Positions 5,886-23,642 of a DNA stretch of 64,000 nucleotides are shown one piece after another. The notes under the pieces are model-generated. The model was given only the letters and a program-made list of their open reading frames with translations. It made no database searches and had not been told where the DNA came from. A program made the translations under genes and the position numbers. Position 1 is the stretch's first letter. The number at the start of each line of letters is the position of its first letter. This DNA comes from a virus: IMG/VR virus record IMGVR_UViG_3300045988_125011. One strand, 5' to 3'.

Positions 5886-5961
5886 GGGGATATAGCTCAG
5901 TTGGGAGAGCATCTGCTTTGCAAGCAGAGGGTCGCCGGTTCGAGTCCGGCTATCTCCACCA
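5886..5961 (+). tRNA. tRNA-Ala (anticodon TGC)
   Basis: Cloverleaf folded by hand; G3:U70 pair present; anticodon loop tttgcaa; encoded CCA. Confidence 0.9.
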
Positions 5962-6233
5962 CCTCATAAAAGAAGGAGCAACCAATGAAACCGAGTATGG
6001 CTTTGGTAAGGAGGGGGGGGTAAACATGGAGCGTGGTGACTTCATATCAGGCGAAGCGTGGTGCAAATACAAATTTGAGCGCGAAAGCAAAAAAGAAGAA
6101 ATTGAGCGACTCCAAAGAAAGGTTGAGCGAGCAAGCAAAAATCTCCACAATCGAATAGTGTATGACAACATTGTACTAACCGTTTTGAGTGTGACGACAA
6201 TCGCAGTATTAGCTGGTTGGATATAAGAAATAT

Positions 6234-6317
6234 GCAGGATTGGTGGAATTGGCAGACACGGCGGATTCAAGTCCCGCTGCCATCGGCGTAAGAGTTCAAG
6301 TCTCTTATCCTGCACCA
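6234..6317 (+). tRNA. tRNA-Leu (anticodon CAA), long variable arm
   Basis: Acceptor gcaggat/atcctgc; loop ttcaagt; A31-C39 mismatch in the anticodon stem; CCA encoded. Confidence 0.75.
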
Positions 6318-6488
6318 TGCAGTTTTGCCATGCGCGTGTCCTTCGTTCATTTGTAAGTTCCTTTCTTCGTACCTGCATCAAGATAAACACCTCCATCAAA
6401 TATTCACCTCCATCTTTTGCGGGCAAAACTGTTTGTGGAACTCAAGCGTGTCCACCTTTCTGGGCATACCGTAATAGCCGGTCAATAT

Positions 6489-6564
6489 ACTTCCGTAGCT
6501 CAGTTGGTAGAGCACGGCACTTTTAATGCTGGGGTCACGAGTTCGAGCCTCGTCGGGAGTACCA
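6489..6564 (+). tRNA. tRNA-Lys (anticodon TTT)
   Basis: Hand-folded; loop cttttaa; T-arm acgag-ttcgagc-ctcgt; CCA encoded; the ORF at 6417 overlapping it is spurious. Confidence 0.85.
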
Positions 6565-6590
6565 AAGTCAAATATATAAGGAGGTTCCTT

Positions 6591-7247
6591 ATGGGAGTTC
6601 ATATTCATATCCCCGCTGATGCAGTATGGGGGTTTTTCCAAGCAAGCAGAAAACGTTTGAACAAAGAAATGGTTCTCATCGCTGAGAACACCGACACGGA
6701 GTACGCCGTGTATCTTACCGAGGAAAACGACCTCCCAGTTTTGGCTGTTGCAAAGGGCAACGAAAAAATTGAGTACAAAGAACCTTGCGTGAGTGAGGAG
6801 GACTGTACAGCGGTGTCGAAGAAATTCTACACACGCTATCTCTTTCCTGTTGTGATTACAGACAACAAGTATGTTCCGGGAGACAATCCAGATGGCGGCA
6901 AAGAAGAAAGCGATGAAACATGGATGGACATAGAGGATGCTATGTATGAGCGAGATGATGAACTCTGTTTGGCTATGGCAGATTTCCTCGCAATCGCGCT
7001 GCAGGAGGGTGACAACGACGGAACAAATATCTTAGAAGCGTATGGCTATGAAGCTGTCGATGAAATCCTTGATGGATTTTTGAAAGAGCTTTCAGAAGAT
7101 TACGGTTTCCATATCTATCGACCGATGATTATAACGGAAAAAGAAAGCGGCTGTGAAGTCTTTACAGAGTTTCCGTATGATGAATATGACATCGACGGTG
7201 TGGACGAACCGGAAGATGAAGAAGATGAAACTGAGACGGGCGAATGA
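6591..7247 (+). CDS. hypothetical protein with a strongly acidic C-terminus
   Basis: Start moved to ATG 6591 (RBS aaggaggttcctt), downstream of tRNA-Lys; C-terminal DEPEDEEDETE. Confidence 0.55.
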   Translation: MGVHIHIPADAVWGFFQASRKRLNKEMVLIAENTDTEYAVYLTEENDLPVLAVAKGNEKIEYKEPCVSEEDCTAVSKKFYTRYLFPVVITDNKYVPGDNPDGGKEESDETWMDIEDAMYERDDELCLAMADFLAIALQEGDNDGTNILEAYGYEAVDEILDGFLKELSEDYGFHIYRPMIITEKESGCEVFTEFPYDEYDIDGVDEPEDEEDETETGE

Positions 7248-7263
7248 CCCGTCTCTTTTTATT
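7233..7263 (+). terminator. Rho-independent terminator overlapping the stop codon of the 6591 gene
   Basis: gagacggg-cgaatga-cccgtctc followed by ttttta. Confidence 0.6.
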
Positions 7264-7264
7264 T

Positions 7265-7354
7265 GGGGAGTTGACCGAGTGGCTTATGGTGGCGGTCTTG
7301 AAAACCGTTGACGGTGAAAGCCGTCCGTGGGTTCGAATCCTACACTCCCCGCCA
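7265..7354 (+). tRNA. tRNA-Ser (anticodon TGA), long variable arm
   Basis: Acceptor ggggagt/actcccc; loop cttgaaa; CCA encoded. Confidence 0.85.
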
Positions 7355-7382
7355 ACTAAATGATAATGGACGGAGGTAACAT

Positions 7383-8042
7383 ATGCCTGAATGTTTGGAT
7401 AATATGCCGTGGCGTTCGCTGAAGGGGCTTGGGGATATGGCACCCGACTTCCTTAGATTGGGAGATTTCAAAAACGTCAGATTAAAAGACGATACACTGG
7501 TTCAGTTCCGTATCATTGGATTCAAACACGATGTTACAAAAAGTGGTCGTATCCTCCCACTGACTTGGGAGATGGTTGACTGCCTTCCAAACCGGCATCG
7601 TTGGAATAGCAACGACACGAACAGAGGTTCTTGGGGTGCAACAGAGTTGTTCCATAAGATGAACGACGAAGATGGCGTAATTTACCAGCTCATGCCAGAC
7701 GAGATTCTTGAGGTGGTCGAACCAGTAATCAAGCTTACTGCAAACACCTATGACGGAGCGAACGAATTGCTCGAAACGGAGTGCAAGTTTTGGATTAAGT
7801 CCGAAAAAGAAACCTTTGGACGGAACATCTATTCGGCACCGGGCGAAGGTCATTGGTACGAATATTACCGGCAAGAAGATGTCCCTTGGGGCAAGAAGCG
7901 TAATGGTTCCGCTGAGTACACTATGCTGCGTTCTCCTAATTACACCGGCAGCGCCGGCTTCTGCTTTGTGTACACGAGCGGCACCGCGAACTTTGGCAAC
8001 GCAAGGTATTCCTCCGGCGTCGCCCCGGCTTTCAGTTTCTAA
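7383..8042 (+). CDS. hypothetical protein with a C-type-lectin/DUF1566-like C-terminus (ends ...SGVAPAFSF)
   Basis: 219 aa; C-terminal ...YTGSAGFCFVYTSGTANFGNARYSSGVAPAFSF resembles the end of FGE/CLec-fold receptor-binding domains. Confidence 0.5.
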   Translation: MPECLDNMPWRSLKGLGDMAPDFLRLGDFKNVRLKDDTLVQFRIIGFKHDVTKSGRILPLTWEMVDCLPNRHRWNSNDTNRGSWGATELFHKMNDEDGVIYQLMPDEILEVVEPVIKLTANTYDGANELLETECKFWIKSEKETFGRNIYSAPGEGHWYEYYRQEDVPWGKKRNGSAEYTMLRSPNYTGSAGFCFVYTSGTANFGNARYSSGVAPAFSF

Positions 8043-8216
8043 TCTGTGTATCAAAAGCATCAGCACCACGGAAGTGGTGCAAGATAAAACCATAACCACT
8101 GGGGCAGTTGCTTCAGTGGTTTTATGTCCACAATGGCTCCAACCTCCTCGTGGTGTGGGCGGATAGTCGTAAGACGAACTAATAGGGGTACATTTGAAAT
8201 CAAGGAGTACATACAC

Positions 8217-8615
8217 ATGGCAAAAATCGTTATCGCAGGCGACGCAGTCGTCGTCACTTCCGCAATGAAGCTTGAGGACATCAAGACCATCGAGAAGTAT
8301 CGTCCCAAGGAGCTCGTCCTGAAGGGCGGCGAGGATGGCAAGGAGCCCATCTTCGGTGTCGGCACCACTCATGGTGCAGGCAATATCAACGCAGTTGGCG
8401 CATCCTTCGGCTCCGAGACCCGTGACGATGACAAGCTGGCGTGCATCACCCTGTTCCTCGACGGTGTTACCGGCGATGTGAAGGATTGGGTCGCTGACCG
8501 CCTTGGCGCTGCCATCATCAACCTCAACAAGCTCGAAGAGAAGCTCCCCACTGTTCTCGAAGAGATTGCGGCTGAGAAGGCAACCGTGATGAGCAACATC
8601 ACTGTCGCTCAGTAA
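8217..8615 (+). CDS. hypothetical protein
   Basis: Start set at ATG 8217 with RBS caaggagtacatacac; the gene sits between tRNAs. Confidence 0.5.
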   Translation: MAKIVIAGDAVVVTSAMKLEDIKTIEKYRPKELVLKGGEDGKEPIFGVGTTHGAGNINAVGASFGSETRDDDKLACITLFLDGVTGDVKDWVADRLGAAIINLNKLEEKLPTVLEEIAAEKATVMSNITVAQ

Positions 8616-8688
8616 GAGACACTGCAACGGGGCGGCTATGCCGCCCCACCACCCAAAAAACAAAAAACGAATAAAAGGAGAATACATA

Positions 8689-8916
8689 ATGATTAAGGTT
8701 ACTGTTGGCAACAATGTTAAGCGTGAGGCTGTCATCATCGATGAGAATACCACCCTGCGCTCCTGCCTTGAGGCAAACGGCGTTGATTACACTCGTGGTG
8801 TCATGCACCTCGATGGCTCTTCTCTGAACCCCGGCGACCTCGATAAGACCTTCCAGCAGTTCGGCATTACCGAGAAGTGCTTCCTGCTGAATGTCGTTAA
8901 GGCGGACAACGCCTAA
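8689..8916 (+). CDS. small beta-grasp (ThiS/MoaD-like) protein, candidate ubiquitin-like protein; no C-terminal GG
   Basis: MIKVTVGNN...VMHLDGSSLNPGDLDKT resembles the ThiS/MoaD pattern; RBS aaaaggagaatacataATG. Confidence 0.35.
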   Translation: MIKVTVGNNVKREAVIIDENTTLRSCLEANGVDYTRGVMHLDGSSLNPGDLDKTFQQFGITEKCFLLNVVKADNA

Positions 8917-8927
8917 GTTTTAGATTA

Positions 8928-8956
8928 GAGCCGCCCTTCATGGGGCGGCTCTTTTC
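8928..8956 (+). terminator. Rho-independent terminator immediately before tRNA-Leu(TAA)
   Basis: gagccgccc-ttcat-gggcggctc followed by tttt. Confidence 0.6.
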
Positions 8957-8958
8957 AT

Positions 8959-9043
8959 GGGGAATTGGTGGAATTGGAAGACACAACAGATTTAAGTTCT
9001 GTTGGCGTATGCCGTATCGGTTCAAATCCGATATTCCCCACCA
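8959..9043 (+). tRNA. tRNA-Leu (anticodon TAA), long variable arm
   Basis: Acceptor ggggaat/attcccc; anticodon stem acaga/tctgt; loop tttaagt; CCA encoded. Confidence 0.85.
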
Positions 9044-9069: not shown

Positions 9070-10563
9070 GTGTTCAAGACAAGCATTACATCGACACCGT
9101 TTACGTCAGAGGCGGCTAATAGCTTTTTTCAGAACATTACCGGAAGCTATTTTGGCAATGACTGTTCGTTCCTTTCAACGCTTCGTGCACTGGTTGCACC
9201 TCGAATCAAAGAGGACGAAAGTGTTTACCTGACTTTCGGTTCGACCAATTATGATGGGAACACTATCCGTAGCGTTCCAGCAGAACGTGCGGTTAGTGCT
9301 ATCTGTAGCAGTTATCAAATGAATGCCAGCGGTGCGCTCATAGTCCATAGCTTCAATGCTGACCAAAATAGCAATCTGGCTTGTATGCAGATTGTGGAGG
9401 ACAAGTTTACTTCTATCTACCCAGAGTATCACCGTCTTGATAAGGTCAAAGCGTTTTATCGGAAGTCATTCAATGTTGATTGTTATATCAACCCTGACAA
9501 GAAGTCGGTGATTGTCTTCGTTGACAATCTTGATGTTAAGAAAATGCATTACCTTCAGGTATCTATTCTTGCATTCATGCCGTGGTACCTAAATCAGGAT
9601 GATGGTTTGACAGAAGATGAGCTTGCATTGATGCAATCCTTGCGAGAAACAAATTCGGCAAACTATGAGAAGTACATTGCAAAGCTTGCCGAGGGATATG
9701 ATTTCAGAACAGCGCGGATTCGTCAGTTGCTGGGTGATTTTGAAACCAGATATGAGCGCATCGAATGCGATACTGTTCGCAATGAAATTCAATCTATTGA
9801 CATGGAGATTCAGCGACTCAATGATTCTATCGGCGCGTATCTGTCGCGCCGCAATGACAAGTGCATCAGATTGTTGGGACTTGAGCAAAGAATTGCAGAG
9901 GGCGGTGGAGATTCTGAAATCATGGATTATTTCCTCTGCAACAACAGACTTGTCCTGTCTCATGTTAGCAATACGGATATGTATTTCTCGGTTAAAGACT
10001 ACCTTGAATACTTTGACAGAGATATGGCTGAGCGAGCAATCAACAATAGAAGCAGTTATGTGTATCGACCGGATGGTGGCAACGGTCACAATGCGGCAGC
10101 TTCAGAGAAAATGCAGAAGCTGATGCAGGAGATTTTCGTAAGTGAAAATCCTCGGCTTAGAATCCGCTTTTGCGCAGCATATAGATTCGACCTGAATGGT
10201 AGTGTTTCTGCGCAGACTGGTGATTTTTCTGATTACACATTTGATGGTTATATGCCTAATACGCATATTGACCGTTATCATTGCATGGGCAATTACAGCA
10301 GGACTATCAATGAACTGCTGAGAAAACGAAATTATATCGGTGCACTTGAGCAGTGTATTGCGTCCTGTAAGAGTCTGAACTTCGGCGACAGTGCAGTTAT
10401 GGGCGAGTTTATGAGAACCATGTGGTCAAATAACACGGTCAGTCGTTGTATTGAGTTGCCAGATGGTCGCGTTGTAAAGCCGAACGAAGCAATTAGATGG
10501 CTTGATGAGCAGGAGGCAAAGGATGAGCAGACGGAGGAGGCGCAAAATGAGCAGACCAATTAA
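9070..10563 (+). CDS. hypothetical protein (497 aa), first gene of the operon with the JAB and E1-like genes
   Basis: Long ORF; its stop overlaps the JAB gene start; no catalytic motif recognised. Confidence 0.55.
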   Translation: MFKTSITSTPFTSEAANSFFQNITGSYFGNDCSFLSTLRALVAPRIKEDESVYLTFGSTNYDGNTIRSVPAERAVSAICSSYQMNASGALIVHSFNADQNSNLACMQIVEDKFTSIYPEYHRLDKVKAFYRKSFNVDCYINPDKKSVIVFVDNLDVKKMHYLQVSILAFMPWYLNQDDGLTEDELALMQSLRETNSANYEKYIAKLAEGYDFRTARIRQLLGDFETRYERIECDTVRNEIQSIDMEIQRLNDSIGAYLSRRNDKCIRLLGLEQRIAEGGGDSEIMDYFLCNNRLVLSHVSNTDMYFSVKDYLEYFDRDMAERAINNRSSYVYRPDGGNGHNAAASEKMQKLMQEIFVSENPRLRIRFCAAYRFDLNGSVSAQTGDFSDYTFDGYMPNTHIDRYHCMGNYSRTINELLRKRNYIGALEQCIASCKSLNFGDSAVMGEFMRTMWSNNTVSRCIELPDGRVVKPNEAIRWLDEQEAKDEQTEEAQNEQTN

Positions 10564-11479
10564 GTTGACGCAGGAACTCATTGATGAGTGCCGTCAAGAT
10601 TTTGAGAAGGCTTTGTCACTTACAAAGCTCTCGGATGGAAAGCTTTCTTTTACCAAAGCGTTCTCATGTGGTGACAGAAAGGCAGTAGTTTACTTCAGCG
10701 CAGAGGCGTGGGCAAAGATGACTATGCTTATCAAAGAGTTCGATAAAGAGGTCGCATGGCATGGTGTCGCACGTCGAACTGAAGATGAATCGCTTGACGA
10801 GTATGTCATCGATGACATCGTTGTCTATCCGCAGGAGGTAACCGGCGCAACGGTTGAGATGGACACCGAGAAATATGCTCTGTGGATTCAGGAAAACATC
10901 GAAGATGAGCGTTTCAACCACATCTATATGCAGGGACATTCCCATGTAAATATGGGTACGTCTCCATCCTCTGTTGACCTCAATCATCAAGAGGAAATCC
11001 TCGGGATGCTTGGCGATAATGACTTCTACATCTTTATGATTTGGAACAAGTCATTTGCAAGCACAAATAAAATCTATGACCTCAAGAAGAACGTGATGTT
11101 TGAGGATAAAGATATCACGGTCAAGATTATCGGTCAGAATGAAGGACTTGATGAGTTTATCAAAAACGCGAAGGATATGGTGAAGTCAAAGTCCTATGCG
11201 TATGGCGGTCAGAGCGGATACGGCGGTTACTACAATCAGGGATACAGGGGAGCTCCGGCTGGTGCTCCGTATAATCCACTTGCAGGTAAGTCCGACGACA
11301 AAAAGGACAGTAAGAAAGAAGAAAACAAGGATAAGTCATCTGGTAAAAAGAACGAGGGAGAGAAACCCAGAACCAGAATTGGAGCTGGTTGGCATGGACA
11401 GAATGCCTGCCAAGAATCAATGCATGGCTGGGAAGACGAAGATGACTACGACCCTTATGCATACTTAGGAGGTAAGTAA
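10547..11479 (+). CDS. JAB/MPN (JAMM) metallopeptidase-domain protein with a basic N-terminus and a Gly/Tyr-rich C-terminal tail
   Basis: HIYMQGHSHVNMGTSPSSVDL fits the JAMM H-x-H-x7-S-x2-D motif; start moved to ATG 10547 (RBS ggaggaggcgcaaa). Confidence 0.55.
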   Translation: MSRPIKLTQELIDECRQDFEKALSLTKLSDGKLSFTKAFSCGDRKAVVYFSAEAWAKMTMLIKEFDKEVAWHGVARRTEDESLDEYVIDDIVVYPQEVTGATVEMDTEKYALWIQENIEDERFNHIYMQGHSHVNMGTSPSSVDLNHQEEILGMLGDNDFYIFMIWNKSFASTNKIYDLKKNVMFEDKDITVKIIGQNEGLDEFIKNAKDMVKSKSYAYGGQSGYGGYYNQGYRGAPAGAPYNPLAGKSDDKKDSKKEENKDKSSGKKNEGEKPRTRIGAGWHGQNACQESMHGWEDEDDYDPYAYLGGK

Positions 11480-11480
11480 T

Positions 11481-12158
11481 ATGGCTATTGACCTGTCAAA
11501 GAGCTATGAATATTTTCAGCCCGAGAAGGTTGATTGTAGAATCCATATCGTCGGGTGTGGTTCTGTCGGCGCGACGGTTGCGGAGCTGCTGGTTCGCTTA
11601 GGACTCACGAACATCGCACTGTGGGATATGGACACAGTAAGTCCGCACAATCTGGCAAATCAGATTTTCCGTCAGCAGGACATTGGGCGCTCTAAGGTCG
11701 AGGCATTGGCGGATATTCTTTTCGACATCAATCCTGATGTTAAGGATGACCTGAAGCTTTACAAGGATGGGTGGAACGGGCAGCAGTTATCCGGCTATGT
11801 GTTCTTGTGCGTCGATAACATCGAGCTGAGAAAAAAGATTGTTGAGAAACACTTCGACAATCCGTATGTAAAGGCGATGTTTGATTTCAGAACTCTGCTG
11901 GAGGCTGGTCAGCACTATGCTGCTGATTGGTCTGACTACAAGATGAAGAAAGACCTCCTCAACTCCATGAATTTTACACACGATGAGGCGGCGGAAGAAA
12001 CTCCAGTCTCAGCTTGTGGCATCACGCTTGGCGTTGTGACTACGGTCAGAGTGATTTGTGCTCTGGGTGTGAGCAACTTCGTCAAGTACATCAGAGGCAA
12101 GGGGCTGAATAAGCTGATTATTTGTGACGCATTCCAGCCGCTGTTGGATGCGTTTTAA
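11481..12158 (+). CDS. ThiF/MoeB/HesA-family E1-like (ubiquitin-activating-like) enzyme, minimal form
   Basis: RIHIVGCGSVGATVAELLVRLG Rossmann GxGxxG nucleotide-binding motif typical of E1/ThiF; 225 aa. Confidence 0.65.
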   Translation: MAIDLSKSYEYFQPEKVDCRIHIVGCGSVGATVAELLVRLGLTNIALWDMDTVSPHNLANQIFRQQDIGRSKVEALADILFDINPDVKDDLKLYKDGWNGQQLSGYVFLCVDNIELRKKIVEKHFDNPYVKAMFDFRTLLEAGQHYAADWSDYKMKKDLLNSMNFTHDEAAEETPVSACGITLGVVTTVRVICALGVSNFVKYIRGKGLNKLIICDAFQPLLDAF

Positions 12159-12189: not shown

Positions 12190-12996
12190 ATGGACACGAC
12201 CGTTGGTGCTCTCAAAGTAGGTGCACAACTCGTGATGGGCAAGTACGGTGTGGACAAAGACAACCCGTACCCGATTGTTTGGCTGAAAGGAAATCCAAAC
12301 TGTGATTTTATCACAGAAAAAGCTATCGACTACCTGTGCTTCGATGCGGCAGAAGAGACTGGGCATTATAGGCGTGTTAATAATGCGAAGTATCCGGTGT
12401 CCAATCTGTTTTCGTTCTTGAACAGTGACCAGATGATGTGGTATCACGCAATGCACGATAATGATTCTTCACCCGGTGCCTTTGTGAGGTATAGTTATGC
12501 TCGCTATGAAGACCATTACGGGTTTCTATATTTCTTTGAAGACCACGAAATTGCTTCTTTGGTCAGGAAAGAGTATGTGGTCGGAGAGAACCGAGTGTCT
12601 TCGTTGATTCGCCTGCCATCAGTTGCAGATATTTTTAGCCTCCAAGATGGGCGGCGCTTTGACTTATTCAAAAGAAAAGGCATTCGTCCGAATCCGACAG
12701 CCGACTTGTTCGACCTGAAAGCTCGTTATGCAGGGCTTGATTCAGACCGTGGATTTATGAGCTTCTGGCTGTTAGACGATGTTGAGACCGAAAGAGCGGC
12801 GATTTCAAATCGCTCTGGTGTGTTAAACAGGCTGACAGCATCAAGCTGTTCCGGGGTAAGACCGGTGTGCACCTTGAACCCTGACACAATTGTCGAACAG
12901 CGAGAAGCTGGTGTGTTTTTCATCAAGCCATTCACAACTCAAAATGTCTTTACGGACGAAGAACTGTTTGAATTATTAGGTATGGCGCAGCCTTAA
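12190..12996 (+). CDS. hypothetical protein with a CLec/DUF1566-like C-terminus (...SSCSGVRPVCTL)
   Basis: The G-V-R-P-V ending is characteristic of FGE/C-type-lectin-fold domains; paralogous ending to the 7383 gene. Confidence 0.5.
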   Translation: MDTTVGALKVGAQLVMGKYGVDKDNPYPIVWLKGNPNCDFITEKAIDYLCFDAAEETGHYRRVNNAKYPVSNLFSFLNSDQMMWYHAMHDNDSSPGAFVRYSYARYEDHYGFLYFFEDHEIASLVRKEYVVGENRVSSLIRLPSVADIFSLQDGRRFDLFKRKGIRPNPTADLFDLKARYAGLDSDRGFMSFWLLDDVETERAAISNRSGVLNRLTASSCSGVRPVCTLNPDTIVEQREAGVFFIKPFTTQNVFTDEELFELLGMAQP

Positions 12997-13007
12997 TGCG
13001 CCACAGA

Positions 13008-13075
13008 CTGTAACGGATTTTCTCGTAAGAGAGCTTTACGCCAAAGGCTAAAGTAACAAATTGTCGGGAGGATGA
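13008..13075 (+). repeat. Copy 1 of a structured three-hairpin motif: GNRA hairpin tctcGTAAgaga, then cttta-CGCCAAAGGC-taaag, then agtaacaa and a gggagg..cccc hairpin. Lies upstream of the RT gene.
   Basis: Compared by eye with copies at 14558, 14836 and 31352; the stem flanking CGCCAAAGGC changes by compensatory substitutions between copies. Confidence 0.6.
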
Positions 13076-13385
13076 CCCCCGGTGGATGACGCGGTGGAAC
13101 CCAGAAAGCAAACTGGCTGCCACGGGTCGGCAGCATCACGCAATAAAACCAGCCAAATGTCAAGCACTTTTCGCCAAATCTTCGATACAAGGACGAAATG
13201 AACTGACATCAGACTCACGCTTTCAGTCGCAATAATTCCAAAGAAGAAAAAAAAATCTGCTCGCATCTTACACCACGTTTACACCATCTCCCGCATATAA
13301 GCGACTCAGTCTTCAGATTCAGGAATTCTGGGAAGCAGCAGACATATGTAGGTTACAGTTAGTTATTGGACAAGGAGGGGAAGAA

Positions 13386-14522
13386 ATGGTCTATATCACT
13401 GTTAGGCAGTCACCGATTTATCATCAGATGACACTGGAAGAGTACCTGTTTCAAAACTATCAGACACCTCCGGTTGTCAATGCCAATATTGCAAACACAA
13501 GAACATACGAGGTCGAAAATGTCAGTGAACATTTTTCCAGCAAGATTGGCGTTGAAGCTTTAATCGGAAAACTCGTGCGATTTAATAACGATACAGCAGA
13601 GCTTCGTGCAAAGGAACGGAGCGAGTTGTATGAGACTTTTTACATCCCAAAGAAATCTGGTGGTCTTCGTAGAATCGATGCGCCAAAGGCAGAGCTGATG
13701 GACGCCCTGAGAAGACTCAAAACGATTTTCGAGGATGATTTCCATGCACTCTATCATACTGCCGCGTTTGCTTATGTAAAGAAGCGGAGTACAGTCGATG
13801 CGGTTAAGCGTCACCAGAAGAACAGCAGCAAATGGTTCGCAAAGCTTGACCTGCACGACTTTTTTGGCAGCACAACATTGGATTATGCCATCTCAATGTT
13901 CTCGATGGTTTTTCCTTTTAGTGAGATTGTAAAAGAGCCACAGGGCGAGGCAGCATTGCGGACAGCTATGTCGTTAGCGTTCTTAAATGGTGGGCTACCG
14001 CAGGGTACCCCAATTTCACCGCTTATCACAAACGTAATGATGATTCCGGTTGATTTCAAACTGTCGAATACGCTCCGTAATTTTGAAAAACAGAGCTTCA
14101 TTTATACCAGATATGCGGATGACTTCATCATTTCATCCAAGTATGATTTTGATGTTCGTTCTGTTGAAGAGCTGGTAGTAAGTACATTGAACAGCTTTGG
14201 TGCCCCGTTCACAATCAATGCAAGCAAGACTCGGTATGGTTCATCAGCAGGGCGCAACTGGAATCTTGGCGTTATGCTGAATAAGGACAACGAGATTACG
14301 GTCGGTCATAAAAAGAAAAAGCAGTTCCAGTCAATGCTGTACAATTACATCACAGATAAGAACAATGGTGTCGCTTGGGAACGGAATGATGTACAGGTAA
14401 TGTATGGTCTGCATAGCTATTATCGTATGGTCGAAAAAGAGACCATCGACGCAATTGTAGCTTACATCAACAAGAAAATGAATGTGGATGTAATCCGTAT
14501 GATGAAGGACGACCTGCGGTAA
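13386..14522 (+). CDS. reverse transcriptase (retron/DRT/DGR-like single-domain RT, 378 aa)
   Basis: RT motifs FYIPKKSGGLRRI, LDLHDFF, GLPQGTPISPLITNV, YTRYADDFIIS (YADD box), plus retron-type AYVKKRSTVDAVKRH; RBS aaggaggggaagaaATG. Confidence 0.85.
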   Translation: MVYITVRQSPIYHQMTLEEYLFQNYQTPPVVNANIANTRTYEVENVSEHFSSKIGVEALIGKLVRFNNDTAELRAKERSELYETFYIPKKSGGLRRIDAPKAELMDALRRLKTIFEDDFHALYHTAAFAYVKKRSTVDAVKRHQKNSSKWFAKLDLHDFFGSTTLDYAISMFSMVFPFSEIVKEPQGEAALRTAMSLAFLNGGLPQGTPISPLITNVMMIPVDFKLSNTLRNFEKQSFIYTRYADDFIISSKYDFDVRSVEELVVSTLNSFGAPFTINASKTRYGSSAGRNWNLGVMLNKDNEITVGHKKKKQFQSMLYNYITDKNNGVAWERNDVQVMYGLHSYYRMVEKETIDAIVAYINKKMNVDVIRMMKDDLR

Positions 14523-14557
14523 CGTCTATAAATAACCCGCAATCCTGTAATGCATAA

Positions 14558-14632
14558 TTGCGAAAGCAATGCTTATCGCCAAAGGCATAAGTAACAACTT
14601 GATAGGGAGGAAAACCTCCCCAGAGGCGCATT
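14558..14632 (+). repeat. Copy 2 of the three-hairpin motif (ttgcGAAAgcaa, cttat-CGCCAAAGGC-ataag, agtaacaa, gggaggaaaacctcccc), immediately downstream of the RT stop
   Basis: About 55-nt direct repeat of copy 1 with covarying stems. Confidence 0.6.
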
Positions 14633-14835
14633 CACCTGCAGACTCAAGTCATCCTTCGAGGCTGGGAACCACACGGTGAGCAGCCCGAATCACTCGAATC
14701 CATTGTGGCACAATGGATTCAACGAGCCTGACCAAAGGATGTCGCACGCCAGACACTGGGTGCCGGAGCTCCTCCTCACGAGGAGCTACCTCCATGTAGA
14801 TTACAGGGTAATCAAATTATCATTTGCAGTGAATA

Positions 14836-14900
14836 ACATTTCGTAAGGAATGTGCTTCACGCCAAAGGCTGAAGTATCACTTTGCTGGACAGCACAATTC
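14836..14900 (+). repeat. Copy 3 of the hairpin motif (acatttcGTAAggaatgt, cttca-CGCCAAAGGC-tgaag)
   Basis: Same architecture; the stem again differs by compensatory changes. Confidence 0.55.
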
Positions 14901-15125
14901 CCCGCCCGCAGCCTGCTGCGAAGGCGCCTAAGCCAGCTGTACAGCTCATTAAAACTAATCTGGATGTCTCGTCACCTCCATCTGATGAGCGACCGACGAA
15001 CCCATTGTCTCCCAATGATTTCATCATCGCCACTTGGGATTTGAACTCGCTTTCAGCTCATCTAAATCCCGTCGTTACAGGAGATAAACAAAGAGACCAG
15101 AGCAGAATATACATATGGACTGCAG

Positions 15126-15824
15126 ATGAGAAAGGAACTGAGCATGATTTATGTCACTGGAGATACACACGCAAACATTGATATTGCCAAGCTTAATACA
15201 ACAAAGTTCCCACAACAAAAGGAATTGACGAAGAGTGATTTCGTAATCATATGTGGCGATTTCGGACTATGCTGGGACGGTTCGCATCGAGAGATGTGGT
15301 GGCAAGACTGGCTGACAGCGAAAAACTTTACGACACTTTGGATTGATGGCAACCATGAGAACTTTGATATGCTCTACCAGTTCCCGCTGATTGACAAATT
15401 TGGCGGAAAGGTGCGTGAAATCGCTCCTGACATCTATCATCTGGACAGAGGGCAGGTGCTCACGATTGATGGAAAGAAAATCTTCTGCATGGGCGGTGCT
15501 CGCTCTGTTGATAAAGAGTATCGCGTGGAACATATCTCATGGTGGAAAGAGGAAATGCCGTCCAGAGAAGAAATGGAACGAGCGATTGCAGCACTCGAAC
15601 AAAATAATTGGCGAGTTGACTATGTAATTACACATTGTGCGCCAAGGAGTGTTCAGACTCTGCTCGCAAGCTGGTACGAGAACGACCCGATGGTCAGCTT
15701 TTTGGATAGGGTTTGTTCCGACCTCACATTCAAGCGGTGGTTCTTTGGACATTATCATGTGGACAAGCAGGTCAATGAGCAATTTATTGCTCTGTATAAT
15801 AAAGTAATTCCAATGGAGTGGTAA
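15126..15824 (+). CDS. calcineurin-like metallophosphoesterase
   Basis: GDTHANID, CGDFG and GNHE metallophosphatase motifs; alternative start ATG 15144; the 3' end overlaps the first nucleotides of tRNA-Ser. Confidence 0.7.
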   Translation: MRKELSMIYVTGDTHANIDIAKLNTTKFPQQKELTKSDFVIICGDFGLCWDGSHREMWWQDWLTAKNFTTLWIDGNHENFDMLYQFPLIDKFGGKVREIAPDIYHLDRGQVLTIDGKKIFCMGGARSVDKEYRVEHISWWKEEMPSREEMERAIAALEQNNWRVDYVITHCAPRSVQTLLASWYENDPMVSFLDRVCSDLTFKRWFFGHYHVDKQVNEQFIALYNKVIPMEW

Positions 15825-15904
15825 GCCTAACGGTAAGGCAGCGGTTTGCTAAACCGTGAGTAATCCGAAAGGATGTGCAGGTTCAAGTCCTGTCCACTCC
15901 GCCA
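15815..15904 (+). tRNA. tRNA-Ser (anticodon GCT), long variable arm
   Basis: Acceptor ggagtgg/ccactcc; anticodon loop ttgctaa; CCA encoded. Confidence 0.8.
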
Positions 15905-15980
15905 AGGGGTGTGGTGCAATGGCTAACATAGCGGTCTCCAAAACCGTCAGATGGTGGTTCGAATCCATTCACCCCTGCCA
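15905..15980 (+). tRNA. tRNA-Trp (anticodon CCA)
   Basis: Acceptor aggggtg/cacccct; loop ctccaaa; CCA encoded; directly abuts tRNA-Ser. Confidence 0.8.
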
Positions 15981-16166
15981 GTTGTTGGGTAGCTCCCAAC
16001 TGATGTGAGCGATTATCGGCTTACCTCACAAAGAATGAAAATGCTTGCTGAAAACTGCGCTTGTCTTGATGCGTCAAGACCGGTTTGACCTGACGGAATA
16101 GGGGCTACGACTTTTCGGAGCGTAGTTGCCGGTAGCGTGTGACAATCTAAGCGAGAAGCCGACCAT

Positions 16167-16243
16167 GCGGCGTTGGTGTTCAACGGTTAGCACTCCGGTC
16201 TTCCAAACCGGTGGTGCCAGTTCGAGTCTGGTACGCCGCTCCA
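16167..16243 (+). tRNA. tRNA-Gly (anticodon TCC)
   Basis: Acceptor gcggcgt/acgccgc; anticodon stem ccggt/accgg; loop cttccaa; CCA encoded. Confidence 0.85.
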
Positions 16244-16360
16244 AGTAAGAAACCATTAAATTATGCGTTAAAGGAAATGCCTTTACGACACGTCAGAGCC
16301 TGCTCTGGAAGTCGGTTACAGGTTGGTTTGGCGGGACGCCGCTGCATGAGCCTGCAGATA

Positions 16361-16435
16361 CAGGGGTATGGTGAAGCGGTAACACAGCGGACTTTGACTC
16401 CGTTATTCGTAGGTTCAAATCCTACTGCCCCTGCC
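16361..16435 (+). tRNA. tRNA-Gln (anticodon TTG)
   Basis: Loop ctttgac; T-arm gtagg-ttcaaat-cctac; 75 nt; CCA encoded. Confidence 0.85.
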
Positions 16436-16595
16436 AAAATCATCTTCGGCATTAGAGCTTGTTTTCTATCCCTGCAATCCCTTGTGCCACGATGATTTAT
16501 CCATGATTCTCCTTTCACGCTATCAAAACTGCCATCATAGTGAGTTTGTATTGGTGGTGTTAATGACATCGCCATAGTTTCAGGATGGCATCTAT

Positions 16596-16671
16596 GCTGG
16601 AATAGCTCAACTGGTAGAGTAACGCTTTCGTACAGCGTGGGTTCTCGGTTCGACTCCGAGTTCCAGCTCCA
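16596..16671 (+). tRNA. tRNA-Thr (anticodon CGT)
   Basis: Acceptor gctggaa/ttccagc; anticodon stem acgct/agcgt; loop ttcgtac; CCA encoded. Confidence 0.85.
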
Positions 16672-16784
16672 TCTGCTCTGTTGGTCATGCTTACGTTTGT
16701 ACGGTTAGTTCATCACTCAACTGTTATCTCTGTAAGAGACACAGCCGGGTGCACACGGAGTCCTACGGGCGCAGGGCGTATCTA

Positions 16785-16858
16785 TGCTGATGTAGCTCAG
16801 TTGGTAGAGCAGCACCGGAAGTGCGAGCCGCTGGTTCAAGTCCAGTCATCAGCAGCCT
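16785..16858 (+). ncRNA. Degenerate tRNA-like element. Acceptor stem gctgatg/catcagc, D-arm and T-arm are canonical, but only 18 nt lie between D- and T-arms (4-bp stem gcac/gtgc, 5-nt loop), so it has no anticodon loop and ends GCC rather than CCA.
   Basis: Hand fold gives a total of 69 nt; cannot make a standard cloverleaf. Confidence 0.4.
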
Positions 16859-16898
16859 TTTAGCTAAAAGCTGACACCTCGGAAAGACGAGGGTGCAC

Positions 16899-16974
16899 GC
16901 TGGTGTAGCGTAATTGGTAGCGCAAGTGATTTGTACTCACTGGGTTGCGGGTTCGAGCCCTGTCACCAGCTCCA
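16899..16974 (+). tRNA. tRNA-Thr (anticodon TGT)
   Basis: Acceptor gctggtg/caccagc; anticodon stem agtga/tcact; loop tttgtac; CCA encoded; two G-U pairs in the T-stem. Confidence 0.8.
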
Positions 16975-17008
16975 ACGGACTGACATATCCGTTTTCCTTT
17001 CTGCCCCG

Positions 17009-17092
17009 GCACGCACTACTAAGCATTGATGGCGATGCTTATGGTGAGGATGGTTCGAACCCATCAGTAGTGCGTGTGCGTTCGGAAACAAA
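17009..17092 (+). ncRNA. tRNA-like or mini-helix structure: an 11-bp closing stem (cacgcactact/agtagtgcgtg) enclosing a 6-bp hairpin (aagcat..atgctt) and a canonical T-arm (gatgg-ttcgaac-ccatc), with no D-arm
   Basis: Structure read by hand in the spacer between tRNA-Thr and tRNA-Pro. Confidence 0.3.
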
Positions 17093-17102
17093 ACCATTAT
17101 AT

Positions 17103-17178
17103 CTGGGTGTAGCACAGGTGGTAGTGCGCTTGCTTTGGGAGCAAGATGTCGGGGGTTCGAGTCCTCTCGCCCAGACCA
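17103..17178 (+). tRNA. tRNA-Pro (anticodon TGG)
   Basis: Anticodon stem cttgc/gcaag; loop tttggga; CCA encoded. Confidence 0.8.
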
Positions 17179-17199: not shown

Positions 17200-17682
17200 A
17201 TGTATCTGTATCACGGTACTCCGGCAGATTTCGATGTACCAACCCTGAACAAGTGTAAGCCGCACCGAGATTTCGGATGCGGCTTTTATCTTGCCACAAA
17301 TTATTTCGATGCCTTGCCGATGGCAGTCAAAAACTCTCGGGTGGGATATGTCCAAACATATCTGCTCACAGACTTGGATGGACTTTCCGTTCTGGAGTTT
17401 GATGAAAGGTCTGAGGATTGGCTTCGGTTCGTGGTTTCTTCAAGGCTCGGCACCGCTCCAAATGTCGATTTGGTAATCGGATATATGGCTGGCGGAGGAA
17501 GTAATTTGAAAAGTAAATTTACAAAGCTGAGAAATAGCAATGTGTCGATTGACGTGGCGGCTACAGCAATGCGAAAAGAGTTAACCAGTACGCAGCTTGG
17601 CGTACAATATGCGTTCCTGACAGAAAAAGCATTGTCCAAGCTCGTTAGGGTCTCAACTGAAATAGTGGAAATGGAGGATTAA
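17200..17682 (+). CDS. hypothetical protein with an H-G-T...Y...E arrangement reminiscent of H-Y-E (PARP/DarT-like) ADP-ribosyltransferases
   Basis: MYLYHGTPADFD resembles the PARP HGS motif; downstream GCGFYLA (Y) and LEFDERSED (E); this is inference only. Confidence 0.3.
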   Translation: MYLYHGTPADFDVPTLNKCKPHRDFGCGFYLATNYFDALPMAVKNSRVGYVQTYLLTDLDGLSVLEFDERSEDWLRFVVSSRLGTAPNVDLVIGYMAGGGSNLKSKFTKLRNSNVSIDVAATAMRKELTSTQLGVQYAFLTEKALSKLVRVSTEIVEMED

Positions 17683-17685
17683 AAC

Positions 17686-18240
17686 ATGACAAGGAATGAA
17701 TTTATTGACAATATCACTGAGTGGTGTGAACTGAAAGACTTTTGCAACGACTTTGACTGCGATATCTGTGAGGACATCTATGACGATGATGATTACGATG
17801 ACAGCGTCGAAGAAGATATCCGCGATGCTATCGCCGACTACGGCTGGAGGGACATCCGAGACTTCCTTGGCAACCTCCCCAGCGGGTACTATTACTACCG
17901 TCGTAACAGCGCCTTTGATTATGATGGTCTCGATGACGATGACTTCGAAGACTACAAAGAGGATGTCCTCGAATGGGGCGATGACTACGGCGCATGGGAC
18001 GACGAGGAAGATGAAGATGAAGAGTACGCCGATGCAGATGACGACTTCCTCGATTCTCTGGAAGAGGAACCCGACGAAGATGAAACCATTGAGGAAGAGG
18101 ATTTCTCCATCGATGACCTCATCGGTATGTGCAGTGTAGTGTTTGTGGCTATCCAGAATGATGAAGTGGAAAAGCAGCAAGAAGAAGACGAGGCGTTCGC
18201 ACAGCTCCTGAGCATGGATGGGAGACGTATTGCAACCTAA
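17686..18240 (+). CDS. hyper-acidic protein (very high Asp/Glu content), possible DNA-mimic or anti-restriction-like protein
   Basis: Composition read directly: runs such as DDDDYDD, DEEDEDEEYADADDDF, EEEPDEDETIEEED. Confidence 0.6.
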   Translation: MTRNEFIDNITEWCELKDFCNDFDCDICEDIYDDDDYDDSVEEDIRDAIADYGWRDIRDFLGNLPSGYYYYRRNSAFDYDGLDDDDFEDYKEDVLEWGDDYGAWDDEEDEDEEYADADDDFLDSLEEEPDEDETIEEEDFSIDDLIGMCSVVFVAIQNDEVEKQQEEDEAFAQLLSMDGRRIAT

Positions 18241-19213: not shown

Positions 19214-19774
19214 ATGAAGGTTCTTGTTGTCGTTGATATGCAGAACGACTTTATTGATGGTACACTTGGCACACCGGAGGCGCAGGCTATTGTGCCGAAG
19301 GTCGTCAAGAAAATCAAAGAGTTTGATGGGGAAGTTTTGTGGACACAAGACACCCATTCTGATGATTACCTCGAAACGCAAGAAGGAAGACTGTTGCCGG
19401 TAGAACACTGTATATCTGCAAGTAATGGCTGGCAGATTCATAGCTCAGTCAAAGCAGCAATTCAGAGCAAGCATCCAGTGGATGACCAGTTGAATGGTTT
19501 CGAGAAGAAAACGTTTGGTTCATTAGCACTTGCTGGTCGCCTATATCCAGAAGTTGCGTTTGGTGATGGCATAGAAGAAATTGTCCTTGTCGGTCTTTGT
19601 ACCGATATCTGTGTTATCTCAAACGCCTTGCTGCTCAAGTCGTTCATGCCGGAAGTTAAGATTACGGTCGATGCTTCCTGCTGCGCTGGCGTGACACCAG
19701 AGAGTCACAAGACTGCACTGTCGGCAATGAAAATGTGCCAGATTAACATCGAGAACGAGGGGGTCACGGCATGA
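19214..19774 (+). CDS. isochorismatase-family cysteine hydrolase (nicotinamidase PncA-like)
   Basis: VVVDMQNDF N-terminal motif and VGLCTDICV catalytic Cys context. Confidence 0.7.
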   Translation: MKVLVVVDMQNDFIDGTLGTPEAQAIVPKVVKKIKEFDGEVLWTQDTHSDDYLETQEGRLLPVEHCISASNGWQIHSSVKAAIQSKHPVDDQLNGFEKKTFGSLALAGRLYPEVAFGDGIEEIVLVGLCTDICVISNALLLKSFMPEVKITVDASCCAGVTPESHKTALSAMKMCQINIENEGVTA

Positions 19775-20559
19775 TTCTTGTCAACGACAAGCAGGTCGAG
19801 TTTACAAAGTTCCCTGATGGTACAACCTCTTTTAGGTATAATCCGTTTGGCTCAATGACTCGCATCTTCAATATCACATGGAAGTATGACGGCGATGAGG
19901 AGTGCATCCTTCTATGGTATCTGGTAAATCATATCCGCGACCATGACCGGAACGTTCGCCTCCGCTTGCTGCTCCCATACATTCCAAATGCCAGAATGGA
20001 TAGAGTAAAAAATGCGGACGAAGTGTTTACGCTAAAATGGTTTGCGCAGTTTATCAATATGCTGAATTTTGACGACGTGTTAGTCGATGACCCTCACTCG
20101 AATGTATCAGCAGCATTACTTGACAGAGTCAAGGTATATGACGCGCAGCCGCACATCCAGAAAGCTCTGGACAAGTTGGATGACAAAAATGTGTTGCTGT
20201 GCTATCCTGATGAGGGAGCAGCAAAACGATATTCATCGCAAGCTGGTAGAGAGTATGTGTTCTGCATCAAGCACAGAGACTGGCGCACCGGGAAAATTGA
20301 ACGGCTGGAACTGACGAGCCCAGAAAAGGTTACCGATAGAAATGTGCTGATTGTCGATGATATTTGTTCTCGCGGAGGCACATTCACTTTTACAGCTAAG
20401 GCACTAAAAGAGGCTGGCGCGAATGAAGTGTATTTGTATGTGACCCATTGTGAAAACACAATTCACAGTGGAACGGTTCTCACAGACGGCTTAATCAGTC
20501 GTGTGTTTACCACAGATAGTATCTATCGCGGAAATAGCGAGATGATTTCGCTCATTTAA
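19771..20559 (+). CDS. ribose-phosphate pyrophosphokinase (Prs)-like phosphoribosyltransferase-fold protein; candidate ADP-ribose pyrophosphokinase of a NAD reconstitution pathway
   Basis: PRPP-binding loop NVLIVDDICSRGGT and Prs-like C-terminal EVYLYVTHCENTIHSG; 262 aa. Confidence 0.55.
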   Translation: MILVNDKQVEFTKFPDGTTSFRYNPFGSMTRIFNITWKYDGDEECILLWYLVNHIRDHDRNVRLRLLLPYIPNARMDRVKNADEVFTLKWFAQFINMLNFDDVLVDDPHSNVSAALLDRVKVYDAQPHIQKALDKLDDKNVLLCYPDEGAAKRYSSQAGREYVFCIKHRDWRTGKIERLELTSPEKVTDRNVLIVDDICSRGGTFTFTAKALKEAGANEVYLYVTHCENTIHSGTVLTDGLISRVFTTDSIYRGNSEMISLI

Positions 20560-20578
20560 TCTTAAAGGAGGCGGGCAA

Positions 20579-21784
20579 ATGCTTGAGTTACAGGGTAAGT
20601 TTGGCACTGCAAAGGTGTTTACCGACGTGGTCGATAATGAGTCTATCTCTCAGGTTATCAATCTTTTGAATCAACCGTACATCGAGGGAAGCAAAGTCCG
20701 TATGATGCCAGACATTCATGCTGGGGCTGGTTGTACAATCGGAACCACGATGACCATCAAGGATAAGATTTGCCCGAACCTTGTCGGCGTTGACATTGGA
20801 TGCGGCATGGAAACTATCCGTATCAAAGAAACGCATATTGAACCGCAGAAGCTGGACAAAGTTATTCGTGCAGGAGTTCCGTCCGGTTTCGAGATTCGCA
20901 CAGAAGCTCATAGATATGCAAGTAGCATCGACCTGTCGGAACTGTGCTGTGCAAAGATGGTCAATGTAGACCGCGCATATAAAAGCATCGGTACGCTTGG
21001 TGGAGGGAATCATTTCATCGAAGCCAACAAAGATGATGATGGACACATCTATATTGTGGTGCATTCCGGTAGTAGACACCTTGGTCTGGAGATTGCTAAC
21101 TTCTATCAGGAAGCTGCGTTCAAGGCGTTAACCTCGTATTCCAAGGAAGAAATCGAGGAGGTCGTCAACGAGTTAAAAGCGGCTGGAAGACAAAGAGAAA
21201 TCCAAGCTGTTCTTAAAGGCATGAAGGCGAAGAAGCCGGGAGTTCCAAAGCAGCTTGCATACGTTGAGGGAGAATTGTTTGAGCAGTATATCCATGACAT
21301 GAAAATTGCTCAACGTTTTGCTGAGCTTAACCGCCAAGCAATGATGGACACCATTGTTAAGGGTATGGGCTTCCATGTCGAAGAGCAGTTTACGACTATT
21401 CACAACTACATCGATGTAGAGAATATGATTCTTCGCAAGGGCTCGGTCTCTGCACAGGCTGGTGAGCGGCTGCTGATTCCTATCAACATGAGAGACGGTA
21501 GTTTGCTGTGTACCGGCAAAGGAAATGAAGACTGGAACTTCTCTGCCCCGCATGGAGCTGGGCGTTTGATGAGCCGCAGTGCAGCGAAAGAGACATTCAC
21601 AGTTTCTGAGTTCAAGAAGCAGATGGAAGGCATTTACACCACATCTGTTGGAAGAAGCACACTCGATGAATGCCCGATGGCATACAAAGGTATGGATGAT
21701 ATCGTAAACAATGTCGAACCGACAGTGACCATTGATGCCATCATCAAGCCGATTTATAACTTTAAGGCGGGTGAAGAGGAATGA
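20579..21784 (+). CDS. rtcB: RtcB-family RNA ligase (3'-phosphate/5'-OH)
   Basis: MPDIHAGAGCTIGTT, VGVDIGCGM, GGGNHFIE and SAPHGAGR motifs align with E. coli RtcB; 401 aa. Confidence 0.9.
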   Translation: MLELQGKFGTAKVFTDVVDNESISQVINLLNQPYIEGSKVRMMPDIHAGAGCTIGTTMTIKDKICPNLVGVDIGCGMETIRIKETHIEPQKLDKVIRAGVPSGFEIRTEAHRYASSIDLSELCCAKMVNVDRAYKSIGTLGGGNHFIEANKDDDGHIYIVVHSGSRHLGLEIANFYQEAAFKALTSYSKEEIEEVVNELKAAGRQREIQAVLKGMKAKKPGVPKQLAYVEGELFEQYIHDMKIAQRFAELNRQAMMDTIVKGMGFHVEEQFTTIHNYIDVENMILRKGSVSAQAGERLLIPINMRDGSLLCTGKGNEDWNFSAPHGAGRLMSRSAAKETFTVSEFKKQMEGIYTTSVGRSTLDECPMAYKGMDDIVNNVEPTVTIDAIIKPIYNFKAGEEE

Positions 21785-22005
21785 TGATAGTCCTTTTGGT
21801 ACTCCTGTACCTCTGCATTGGTGCGATTGTAACATTCGCACTTTGCCGCTTGTACACTATCGTAGAACCATATGACAAATATAACGGCTTCGAATGCGAG
21901 TATATCGTGGTAGGTGTTTTCTGGATTGTTGCAGCACCGTTTGCGTTTGCTGTGTTTTTTGCGAAATATGGTGAAAAACTAAAGAAAAGAGGAAAAGCTG
22001 AATGA
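21781..22005 (+). CDS. small membrane protein
   Basis: 74 aa with two hydrophobic segments. Confidence 0.4.
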   Translation: MMIVLLVLLYLCIGAIVTFALCRLYTIVEPYDKYNGFECEYIVVGVFWIVAAPFAFAVFFAKYGEKLKKRGKAE

Positions 22006-23626: not shown

Positions 23627-23642
23627 ATAAGGAGGAGATTAT

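Follow-up and report, generated by a model that had tools for sequence, protein, structure and literature searches.

A phage reverse transcriptase gene with three predicted retron-like RNA units in a widespread family of large gut phages

Which RNA would be the partner of a reverse transcriptase (RT) that a phage encodes between two long non-coding gaps? This question is raised by the IMG/VR virus record IMGVR_UViG_3300045988_125011, of which we analyzed a stretch of 64,000 nucleotides (nt; this whole stretch is called the window, and coordinates count from its first letter). Retrons are bacterial abortive-infection systems that consist of one RT, one non-coding RNA (ncRNA) and a toxin. The window locus is probably a phage-encoded, multi-template module of the retron type, in which one RT and three cognate ncRNAs act by a retron-like mechanism, and no toxin takes part. 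An initial annotation, made from the letters of the window, had proposed that the architecture is that of an RT with a structured ncRNA as its partner. Matches of the enzyme to retron RTs, and covarying structure in the flanks of the gene in homologous phages, bear this out.

Three RNA units around the reverse transcriptase gene

The RT gene (13386-14522, plus strand) is flanked by a gap of 389 nt on its 5' side (12997-13385) and a gap of 603 nt on its 3' side (14523-15125), both without a credible open reading frame (ORF). The initial annotation treated them together as about 1 kb of highly structured sequence. This description fits the 3' gap, which folds with -203 kcal/mol (z = -6.3, 0 of 20 shuffles as stable) and contains a perfect 12-bp palindrome (14696-14720), but not the 5' gap as a whole, which is no more stable than shuffles (z = +0.2). 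The direct repeat that had been noted around the gene is real, but occurs in three copies (13032-13076, 14570-14614 and 14853-14897) and not in two, and the stem that flanks the motif CGCCAAAGGC covaries among them as claimed (CUUUA/UAAAG, CUUAU/AUAAG and CUUCA/UGAAG). The bare 10-mer CGCCAAAGGC is not significant alone (8 matches with at most one mismatch versus 3.2 expected). One copy lies inside the RT gene (13681); since it is missing from relatives with an RT identity of 79% or less, we treat it as most likely coincidental. Each repeat copy is predicted to be the 5' module of a complete retron-like ncRNA unit, which makes three units, all on the strand of the RT gene.

Relatives of the RT were drawn from IMG/VR, GTDB genomes and GenBank, and the flanks of their genes revealed that the repeat belongs to a larger unit. 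In the family, a unit begins with an arm a1 of 8-12 nt, followed by an invariant unpaired G, a few bases (often AUA) and two hairpins, P1 and P2. Further 3' come GUAACAA-n-UUGA, a payload of 180-280 nt, a conserved (C/U)AUGUAG and an arm a2 that is exactly complementary to a1. The P1 hairpin varies among units in sequence and length. In P2, which bears the CGCCAAAGGC motif, GCU opens a 6-bp stem with a one-base bulge and a 3-bp tip. The tip reads GCC-AAA-GGC in the window phage, and ACU-GUU-AGU, GCU-GUC-AGC or GCG-UUC-CGC elsewhere. The payloads form several hairpins, and not a single long one.

The window contains three such units on the plus strand, each recognized by R1, a covariance model of the 5' module. 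U1 (13005-13360), which resembles a retron msr-msd, lies 5' of the RT gene (R1 62.2 bits at 13005-13075). It consists of a1 (13005-13014), the candidate branching G (13015), P1 (13021-13032), P2 (13033-13054) with CGCCAAAGGC at 13039-13048, GUAACAA (13053-13059), a payload at about 13076-13344, UAG (13349-13351) and a2 (13352-13360), with a1 GACUGUAAC pairing with a2 GUUACAGUU. U2 (14542-14809; R1 72.9 bits at 14542-14613) starts 20 nt past the RT stop, with a1 at 14542-14551, the G at 14552, P1 at 14557-14570, P2 at 14571-14592, CGCCAAAGGC at 14577-14586 and a2 at 14800-14809. Its arms AUCCUGUAAU (a1) and AUUACAGGGU (a2) pair over 10 bp, and its payload holds the palindrome mentioned above. 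U3 (14821-15128; R1 63.4 bits at 14821-14896) follows 11 nt past U2, with a1 at 14821-14830, the G at 14831, P1 at 14837-14852, P2 at 14854-14875, CGCCAAAGGC at 14860-14869 and a2 at 15119-15128. Its arms CAUUUGCAGU (a1) and ACUGCAGAUG (a2) pair; in relatives they read CAUUUGCAAU/AUUGCAAAUG, with compensatory changes on both sides. This a2 arm lies directly 5' of the ribosome-binding site (RBS) of a metallophosphatase gene. The start of this gene is likelier to be the ATG at 15144 (RBS AAAGGAA, product MIYVTGDTH) than 15126, and with a start at 15144 the arm ends 16 nt upstream of the start and does not overlap it.

For a test of the helices, 51 non-redundant units were aligned with MAFFT without structural input, the 5' 84 nt of each unit being joined to its 3' 22 nt. 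The a1/a2 helix (10 bp in this alignment) was 93.5% paired, with double changes at 10/10 pairs, and P2 was 96.8% paired, versus 34-42% in controls with the partners slid by 1-3 columns. The covariation score of the alignment was matched by none of 500 shuffles, and the G after a1 (G13015, G14552 and G14831 in the window) was invariant in all 51 units. Lack of conserved structure in the flanks of homologous phages had been named by the initial annotation as evidence against its proposal; covarying structure is in fact kept there. RNAalifold predicted a1/a2, P1 and P2 for the orthologs of U1 (n = 17), U2 (n = 11) and U3. For U2 it added a conserved AUUGU/ACAAU hairpin; in U3 the conserved sequence CAUUGU..CAAUG is present, but the hairpin was not called.

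In a larger set, contiguous a1/a2 pairing of at least 8 bp that ends exactly at the conserved G was found in 79% of 152 units versus 22% in matched controls, and pairing of at least 10 bp in 45% versus 4%. In U1, U2 and U3, the a1/a2 helix has 8-12 bp. A model-guided alignment, which leans to the model, gave 75% pairing for P1 and 98% for P2, with many pair types. Folded singly and compared with shuffles, the units differ in stability (U2 z = -7.15, U3 z = -3.94, U1 z = -1.25). Among the Rfam families are a retron msr family and motifs associated with RTs. A covariance search against Rfam, as suggested in the initial annotation, gave no family for the units, either over the whole window at gathering score or for 12500-15800 and 14535-14815 at E <= 10.

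R1 has three strong matches in the window (62-73 bits, E ~1e-11 to 1e-13), and the next match scores 26 bits. This weak partial fourth copy (31327-31399, plus strand; 26.2 bits, E = 0.0016) sits in the intergenic gap after an ORF that ends at 31309. It consists only of an isolated P2-like hairpin, GCUUUUCGCCAAAGGCAAAAGU, with CGCCAAAGGC, followed by a terminator-like hairpin; P1 is unpaired and a1/a2 are missing. Whether it belongs to the family is uncertain; a unit in decay is one reading, and an independent small RNA that imitates the RT-binding hairpin is another.

The units are associated with the RT gene well beyond the window. Among 65 related sources (phage loci with RT identities of 41-100%), R1 found 153 matches, all of them on the RT strand. 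At least two units were present in 56 of the 65 loci, at least three in 28, and six in one. A unit just 5' of the RT start was found in every source that keeps this flank (61 by R1 and one, L077, by eye); in L028, L143 and L149 the sequence ends before it. The number of units differs greatly among family members, and related phages differ in the units that they hold. Some copies are found 2-5 kb away from the RT gene (L042:7474, L059:8334, L111:10267 and L130). L130 (IMGVR_UViG_3300009826_001457), L127 and L140 have four to six units in a span of 10 kb, again without exception on the RT strand. A search with a 26-nt pattern of the module hit 48 IMG/VR stretches. The RT is encoded in 43 of these stretches, and four of the remaining five belong to contigs in which it is known to occur. 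GenBank phages gave no DNA match and, by protein, only distant relatives (best identity 41%). An unannotated fecal contig in GenBank, with an RT 41% identical to that of the window, has a recognizable a1-G-P1-P2 ... a2 unit directly 5' of its RT gene.

The family is large. The 90%-identity cluster of the RT comprises 1,532 sequences. Relatives of the RT are encoded by at least 548 IMG/VR stretches, and among clusters made at 50% identity, 441 match the RT at E <= 1e-30. The carriers are large gut phages (related contigs have 60-225 kb). Metagenome bins with related contigs are mostly labeled Clostridia/Oscillospiraceae, and one Acutalibacter muris, which is weak evidence for the host.

Scaffold and payload evolve differently. 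In 17 phages, the RT genes of which differ by 3.3% on average, payload differences were 22% for U1, 15% for U2 and 8% for U3, but only 0.5-3.8% for the 5' modules and 0-4% for the 3' ends. Two deep payload haplotypes account for part of this divergence. Within one haplogroup or strain group, payloads differ by 4.5-7.6%, RT genes by 0.85% and 5' modules by 0.5-1%, so that payload diversity is 5-9 times that of the RT gene. The unit scaffolds are under strong purifying selection. A constrained scaffold with a free payload is the pattern that one would expect if the sequence of the template were of little importance. Targeted hypermutation, either DGR-like (diversity-generating retroelement) or by error-prone self-copying, was considered and is not supported. 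There is no adenine bias, and once the two-haplotype split is removed, level and transition/transversion ratio fit near-neutral drift; we therefore do not claim targeted mutagenesis.

The payloads contain conserved islands. One is AAAUGUCAAGCA in U1 (13155-13166), with GUCAAG recurring in distant relatives, and another a hairpin of the type CCAUUGUG-N-CACAAUGG in U2 (14696-14720) and U3 (about 15001-15018). These islands could be stop sites of the RT or protein-binding sites. A 7-mer enrichment search for a universal payload motif gave nothing clearly above shuffles except the terminal AUGUAG.

A retron-type enzyme and its proposed reaction

The RT has 378 amino acids (aa), as supported by ORF and profile matches, and its catalytic YADD is intact. 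The motifs IPKKSGGLRRI, LDLHDFF, GLPQGTPISP and YADD given in the initial annotation are all present. RVT_1 (E = 9.8e-20) is the sole Pfam domain of this single-domain protein. The initial annotation compared it with retron RTs and defense-associated RTs (DRTs), could not assign it to a named retron or DRT type from sequence alone, and suggested a profile-based classification. The best matches in PADLOC, NCBIfam and the PDB assign the enzyme to retrons rather than DRTs. In PADLOC, retron RT models make up all 25 matches listed, with RT_II-A best (5.5e-46), and DRT models are absent among these 25. The top NCBIfam match is retron_St85_RT (175 bits, cut-off 235), while the DRT models score far below their cut-offs (Drt2 42 bits versus 390, Drt3a 32 bits versus 200), as does the group II RT/maturase model TIGR04416 (86 bits versus 300). 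In a PDB sequence search, retron RTs fill the first 12 rows (Ec83, Ec78, Ec67, Kva2 and Ec86).

The enzyme is not readily placed within the retrons. II-A, I-A, III-A and XIII score near-equally in PADLOC (130-155 bits), and XII is also close. We do not assign retron type II-A, since the RT scores under the retron_St85_RT cut-off and an NDT-like gene (nucleoside deoxyribosyltransferase) is not present. In the PDB alignments, the retron hallmarks NAXXH and VTG read AVKRH and NLG in the window RT. Among 33 members of the RT family, YADD, the H of region X and the G of region Y are invariant, but not the N, A, V and T. Mestre et al. (2020, PMC7736814) name the H of NAXXH and the G of VTG as the most conserved residues of these motifs in retron RTs. 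Together, the profiles and alignments indicate that the RT is an active-looking, divergent retron-type enzyme outside all typed subfamilies.

How would such an enzyme use the units? U1-U3 and the RT are probably transcribed together with the flanking genes; a promoter and terminator scan of the locus found nothing beyond shuffle expectation. The 5' arm a1 would pair with the 3' arm a2 and thereby set the unpaired G where the duplex ends, facing the conserved G of the UAG that precedes a2. Ec86 also has an unpaired G opposite its branching G, to which this G of the UAG would correspond. The RT would recognize the 5' module, which comprises P1, GUAACAA and the bulged P2 with the tip GCC-AAA-GGC. 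It would then prime on the 2'-OH of G13015, G14552 or G14831 and copy the RNA, beginning right before a2 and proceeding into the variable payload. The outcome would be three different branched RNA-DNA molecules per infected cell, similar to the multicopy single-stranded DNA (msDNA) of retrons. Binding by the RT, its use of the G for priming, the length of the complementary DNA (cDNA), the branched msDNA and any biological role are inferred from sequence. A retron-like mechanism is the most likely one in view of the a1/a2 inverted repeats, the invariant unpaired G, the conserved scaffold beside a free template, the position 5' of an RT of the retron clade, and the common orientation of units and gene, features that in combination define the anatomy of retron msr-msd RNAs.

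Several observations weigh against a retron-like mechanism. The NAXXH and VTG hallmarks are deviant (AVKRH and NLG), and with 175 bits the RT does not reach the curated cut-off (235 bits) of the one retron model that it approaches. The payloads are long (180-280 nt) and multi-branched, versus the single long msd hairpin of classical retrons; their diversity fits near-neutral drift, and payload sequence may not matter. U1 is no more stable than shuffles (z = -1.25), the units have no Rfam match at E <= 10, and a toxin effector of any retron type is not present. The units are packed between genes without detectable promoters or terminators, so that they would have to be excised from a long transcript or used within it. 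Beyond the anatomy of the units, finally, there is nothing in the proposed reaction that we do not infer.

Some of these points would suit an RT that uses the units as templates in another way, as DRT2 and DRT9 do, so that the cDNA would be unbranched and repetitive or concatenated, or made double-stranded, and a1/a2 would merely frame the template. The long, multi-branched payloads without a classical msd hairpin, the deviant hallmarks, the missing Rfam match and the missing toxin all agree with this idea. Nevertheless, we regard it as distinctly unlikely, as the RT is far nearer to retron RTs (175 bits) than to Drt2 (42 bits) or Drt3a (32 bits), and the units have the defining geometry of retrons, with inverted repeats at both ends and an invariant unpaired G where the duplex stops. 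The initial annotation had already set aside a group II intron or a DGR, and our data agree with it. Apart from the RVT_1 domain and the weak similarity to group II RTs and maturases (86 bits), which remains far under the cut-off of 300, little would suggest either. Rfam detected no group II intron RNA (gathering score or E <= 10). The payloads have no second copy in the 64-kb window and thus form no template repeat/variable repeat (TR/VR) pair, and the variable sites lack adenine bias. We consider this origin extremely improbable.

Other explanations concern the units rather than the enzyme. Their variable number (1-6 copies per locus), the copies dispersed 2-5 kb from the RT, and the different sets held by related phages would be expected if they were non-autonomous mobile or duplicating elements, possibly spread via the RT, with multiplicity reflecting selfish spread. 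To this we give little credence. All 153 copies share the orientation of the RT, are intergenic and lie near it; orthologous units keep position and a1/a2 identity across phages with 60-80% RT identity; target-site duplications were not noticed; and the scaffolds are under strong purifying selection. It is also very improbable that the units are structured RNAs independent of the RT (mRNA processing or stability elements, or regulatory leaders) that owe their position to synteny only. They are exactly intergenic and abut RBSs, with the a2 arm of U1 ending 25 nt before the RT start and that of U3 16 nt before the likely metallophosphatase start, and the whole neighborhood is syntenic. However, the 26-nt pattern search in IMG/VR finds the module almost confined to RT-bearing contigs, even an RT of only 41% identity has a unit directly 5' of its gene, the units share their a1-G ... 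UAG-a2 geometry with retron ncRNAs, and they stay while the genes 3' of the RT vary.

Neighboring genes and possible roles

Immediately upstream of U1 and the RT lies a block of conserved genes, all on the plus strand in the window. The product of c1 (9070-10563, 497 aa) has, on weak evidence, an E2/RWD-like fold. It is followed by c2 (10502-11479), a JAMM/JAB protein with HSHx7Sx2D and weak matches to JAB and RPN11, and c3 (11481-12158), a stand-alone ThiF/E1 protein of 225 aa that matches CBASS E1-E2 models (cyclic oligonucleotide-based antiphage signaling system). Nearly all loci share the order c1, c2, sometimes an acidic protein, c3, and sometimes DUF6273, even where RT identity is as low as 41%. 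Genes 3' of the RT vary among loci, with the metallophosphatase in the window lineage. The gene content suggests that a phage E1/E2-like/JAB module adjoins the RT. This cassette may modify or regulate the RT complex, a link that is drawn from conserved gene order only. Scans with PADLOC, Pfam and NCBIfam found no retron effector among the neighbors of the RT.

Further genes of the window were recorded. DUF6273 paralogs are encoded at 7383-8042 and 12190-12996; the latter lies directly 5' of U1, has a weak match to a PHROG annotated as Hoc-like head decoration, and carries a conserved C-terminus LG(M/V)AQP. The 13 tRNA genes form two arrays (5679-9043 and 15815-17178), the second directly after the metallophosphatase gene that follows U3. 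Rfam detected three RAGATH RNAs above the gathering thresholds, RAGATH-16, RAGATH-4 and RAGATH-36 (201-272, 448-578 and 2860-3016). A DUF3990 protein (17200-17682) matches the PADLOC candidate defense families PDC-M13B/M10A. It is followed by a very acidic protein of 184 aa (17686-18240), which many related phages encode between the JAB and ThiF genes and which may be a DNA mimic. DnaB is also encoded in the window.

At 19214-25256 and 38909-40255, the window encodes an isochorismatase-family protein, a phosphoribosyltransferase of the phosphoribosyl pyrophosphate (PRPP) type, RtcB, NAMPT, an RNA ligase and a CCA-adding tRNA nucleotidyltransferase. These genes suggest NAD+ salvage and tRNA repair, which likely serve counter-defense or repair; phages use such functions against defenses that deplete NAD+ or cleave tRNAs.

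What the phage would do with the proposed RNA-DNA molecules can be addressed only in tentative terms. They could act as a nucleic-acid decoy or sensor of the phage against host immunity, a role that is possible although we would not yet call it probable. Exclusion of other phages appears doubtful. Superinfection exclusion and counter-defense had both been put forward in the initial annotation as roles that such an RT could have. Counter-defense is favored over exclusion because a toxin effector is absent and the neighborhood is rich in NAD+ salvage, tRNA repair and tRNA arrays. A more far-reaching scenario, by analogy with CBASS, combines both parts of the locus. The gut-phage family would have a toxin-free, multi-template retron that works with the E1/E2-like/JAB cassette, several long branched RNA-DNAs, made from exchangeable payloads that evolve fast, would be decoys or sensors against host immunity, and the conjugation enzymes would prime or regulate the RT as Cap2 and Cap3 do for the CBASS cyclase. 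This scenario is speculative and rather unlikely as a whole. If true, it would define a new functional class, with retrons as viral counter-defense coupled to ubiquitin-like chemistry.

Significance and comparison with known systems

Phages have apparently adopted the RT-ncRNA chemistry of retrons, in a form that is toxin-free, has several templates per enzyme, and is common. An RT with three predicted template RNAs and no recognizable toxin points to a widespread, undescribed phage route from RNA to small DNA molecules during infection. A full-text literature search of incomplete coverage found no description of phage-encoded retrons, of natural retrons with several ncRNAs, or of ThiF/JAB linked to an RT. 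If msDNA is made, the question arises what a virus does with reverse-transcribed DNA, and the locus may reveal a strategy of counter-defense or competition. The conserved E1/JAB/E2-like neighbors hint at an unexplored tie between ubiquitin-like conjugation and reverse transcription. In technology, an RT that serves several scaffolds with sequence-tolerant payloads of 180-280 nt would be a candidate for multiplexed or longer DNA donors made in cells.

With its ThiF/E1, JAMM/JAB and E2/RWD-like proteins, the upstream cassette resembles Cap2 (E1-E2) and Cap3 (JAB) of type II CBASS and the Bil-type modules of bacteria for ubiquitin-like conjugation. In CBASS, the E1-E2 and JAB enzymes act on the system's own nucleotidyltransferase. 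In contrast, the window E1 is a stand-alone protein of 225 aa, a ubiquitin-like protein (Ubl) was not identified, and a cyclase is not present.

DRT2, DRT9 and the UG (unknown group) and Abi (abortive infection) defense RTs share with the window locus a single-domain RT beside a structured template RNA, in a setting of conflict. The window RT is only distantly similar to them, as the Drt2 and Drt3a scores indicate, and theirs is a function in host defense. We know of no description of an a1-G/a2 geometry for the RNAs of DRT, UG or Abi systems.

Closest are the bacterial retrons, such as Ec86 (Eco1), Ec78 and Ec83 (type I-A), and St85 (Sen2; type II-A), the RTs of which belong to the same superfamily as that of the window. 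Like the window locus, they have an ncRNA directly 5' of the RT gene, a1/a2 arms, a conserved unpaired G at the 3' end of a1, and a conserved protein-recognition scaffold beside a freely evolving template. Unlike them, the window locus has three units per RT (up to six in relatives), on both sides of the gene, and payloads of 180-280 nt without a single long msd hairpin. In the window RT family, NAXXH and VTG are cut down to H and G. An ATPase, NDT, TOPRIM, TIR or other toxin effector does not accompany the window RT, and the carriers are large tRNA-rich gut phages, and not bacterial defense islands or P4-like prophages. One RT serving serial msr-msd units, and thereby producing several RT-DNAs, is known from synthetic retron arrays ("multitrons"), of which the window locus would be a natural counterpart. 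A precedent for the missing effector are the stand-alone ("orphan") (msr-msd)-RT cassettes of bacteria in RT clades 2 and 11 (Mestre et al., 2020, PMC7736814). They likewise combine a retron RT with an ncRNA and have no effector; theirs is a single ncRNA in a bacterial genome, whereas here the units are multiplied and viral.

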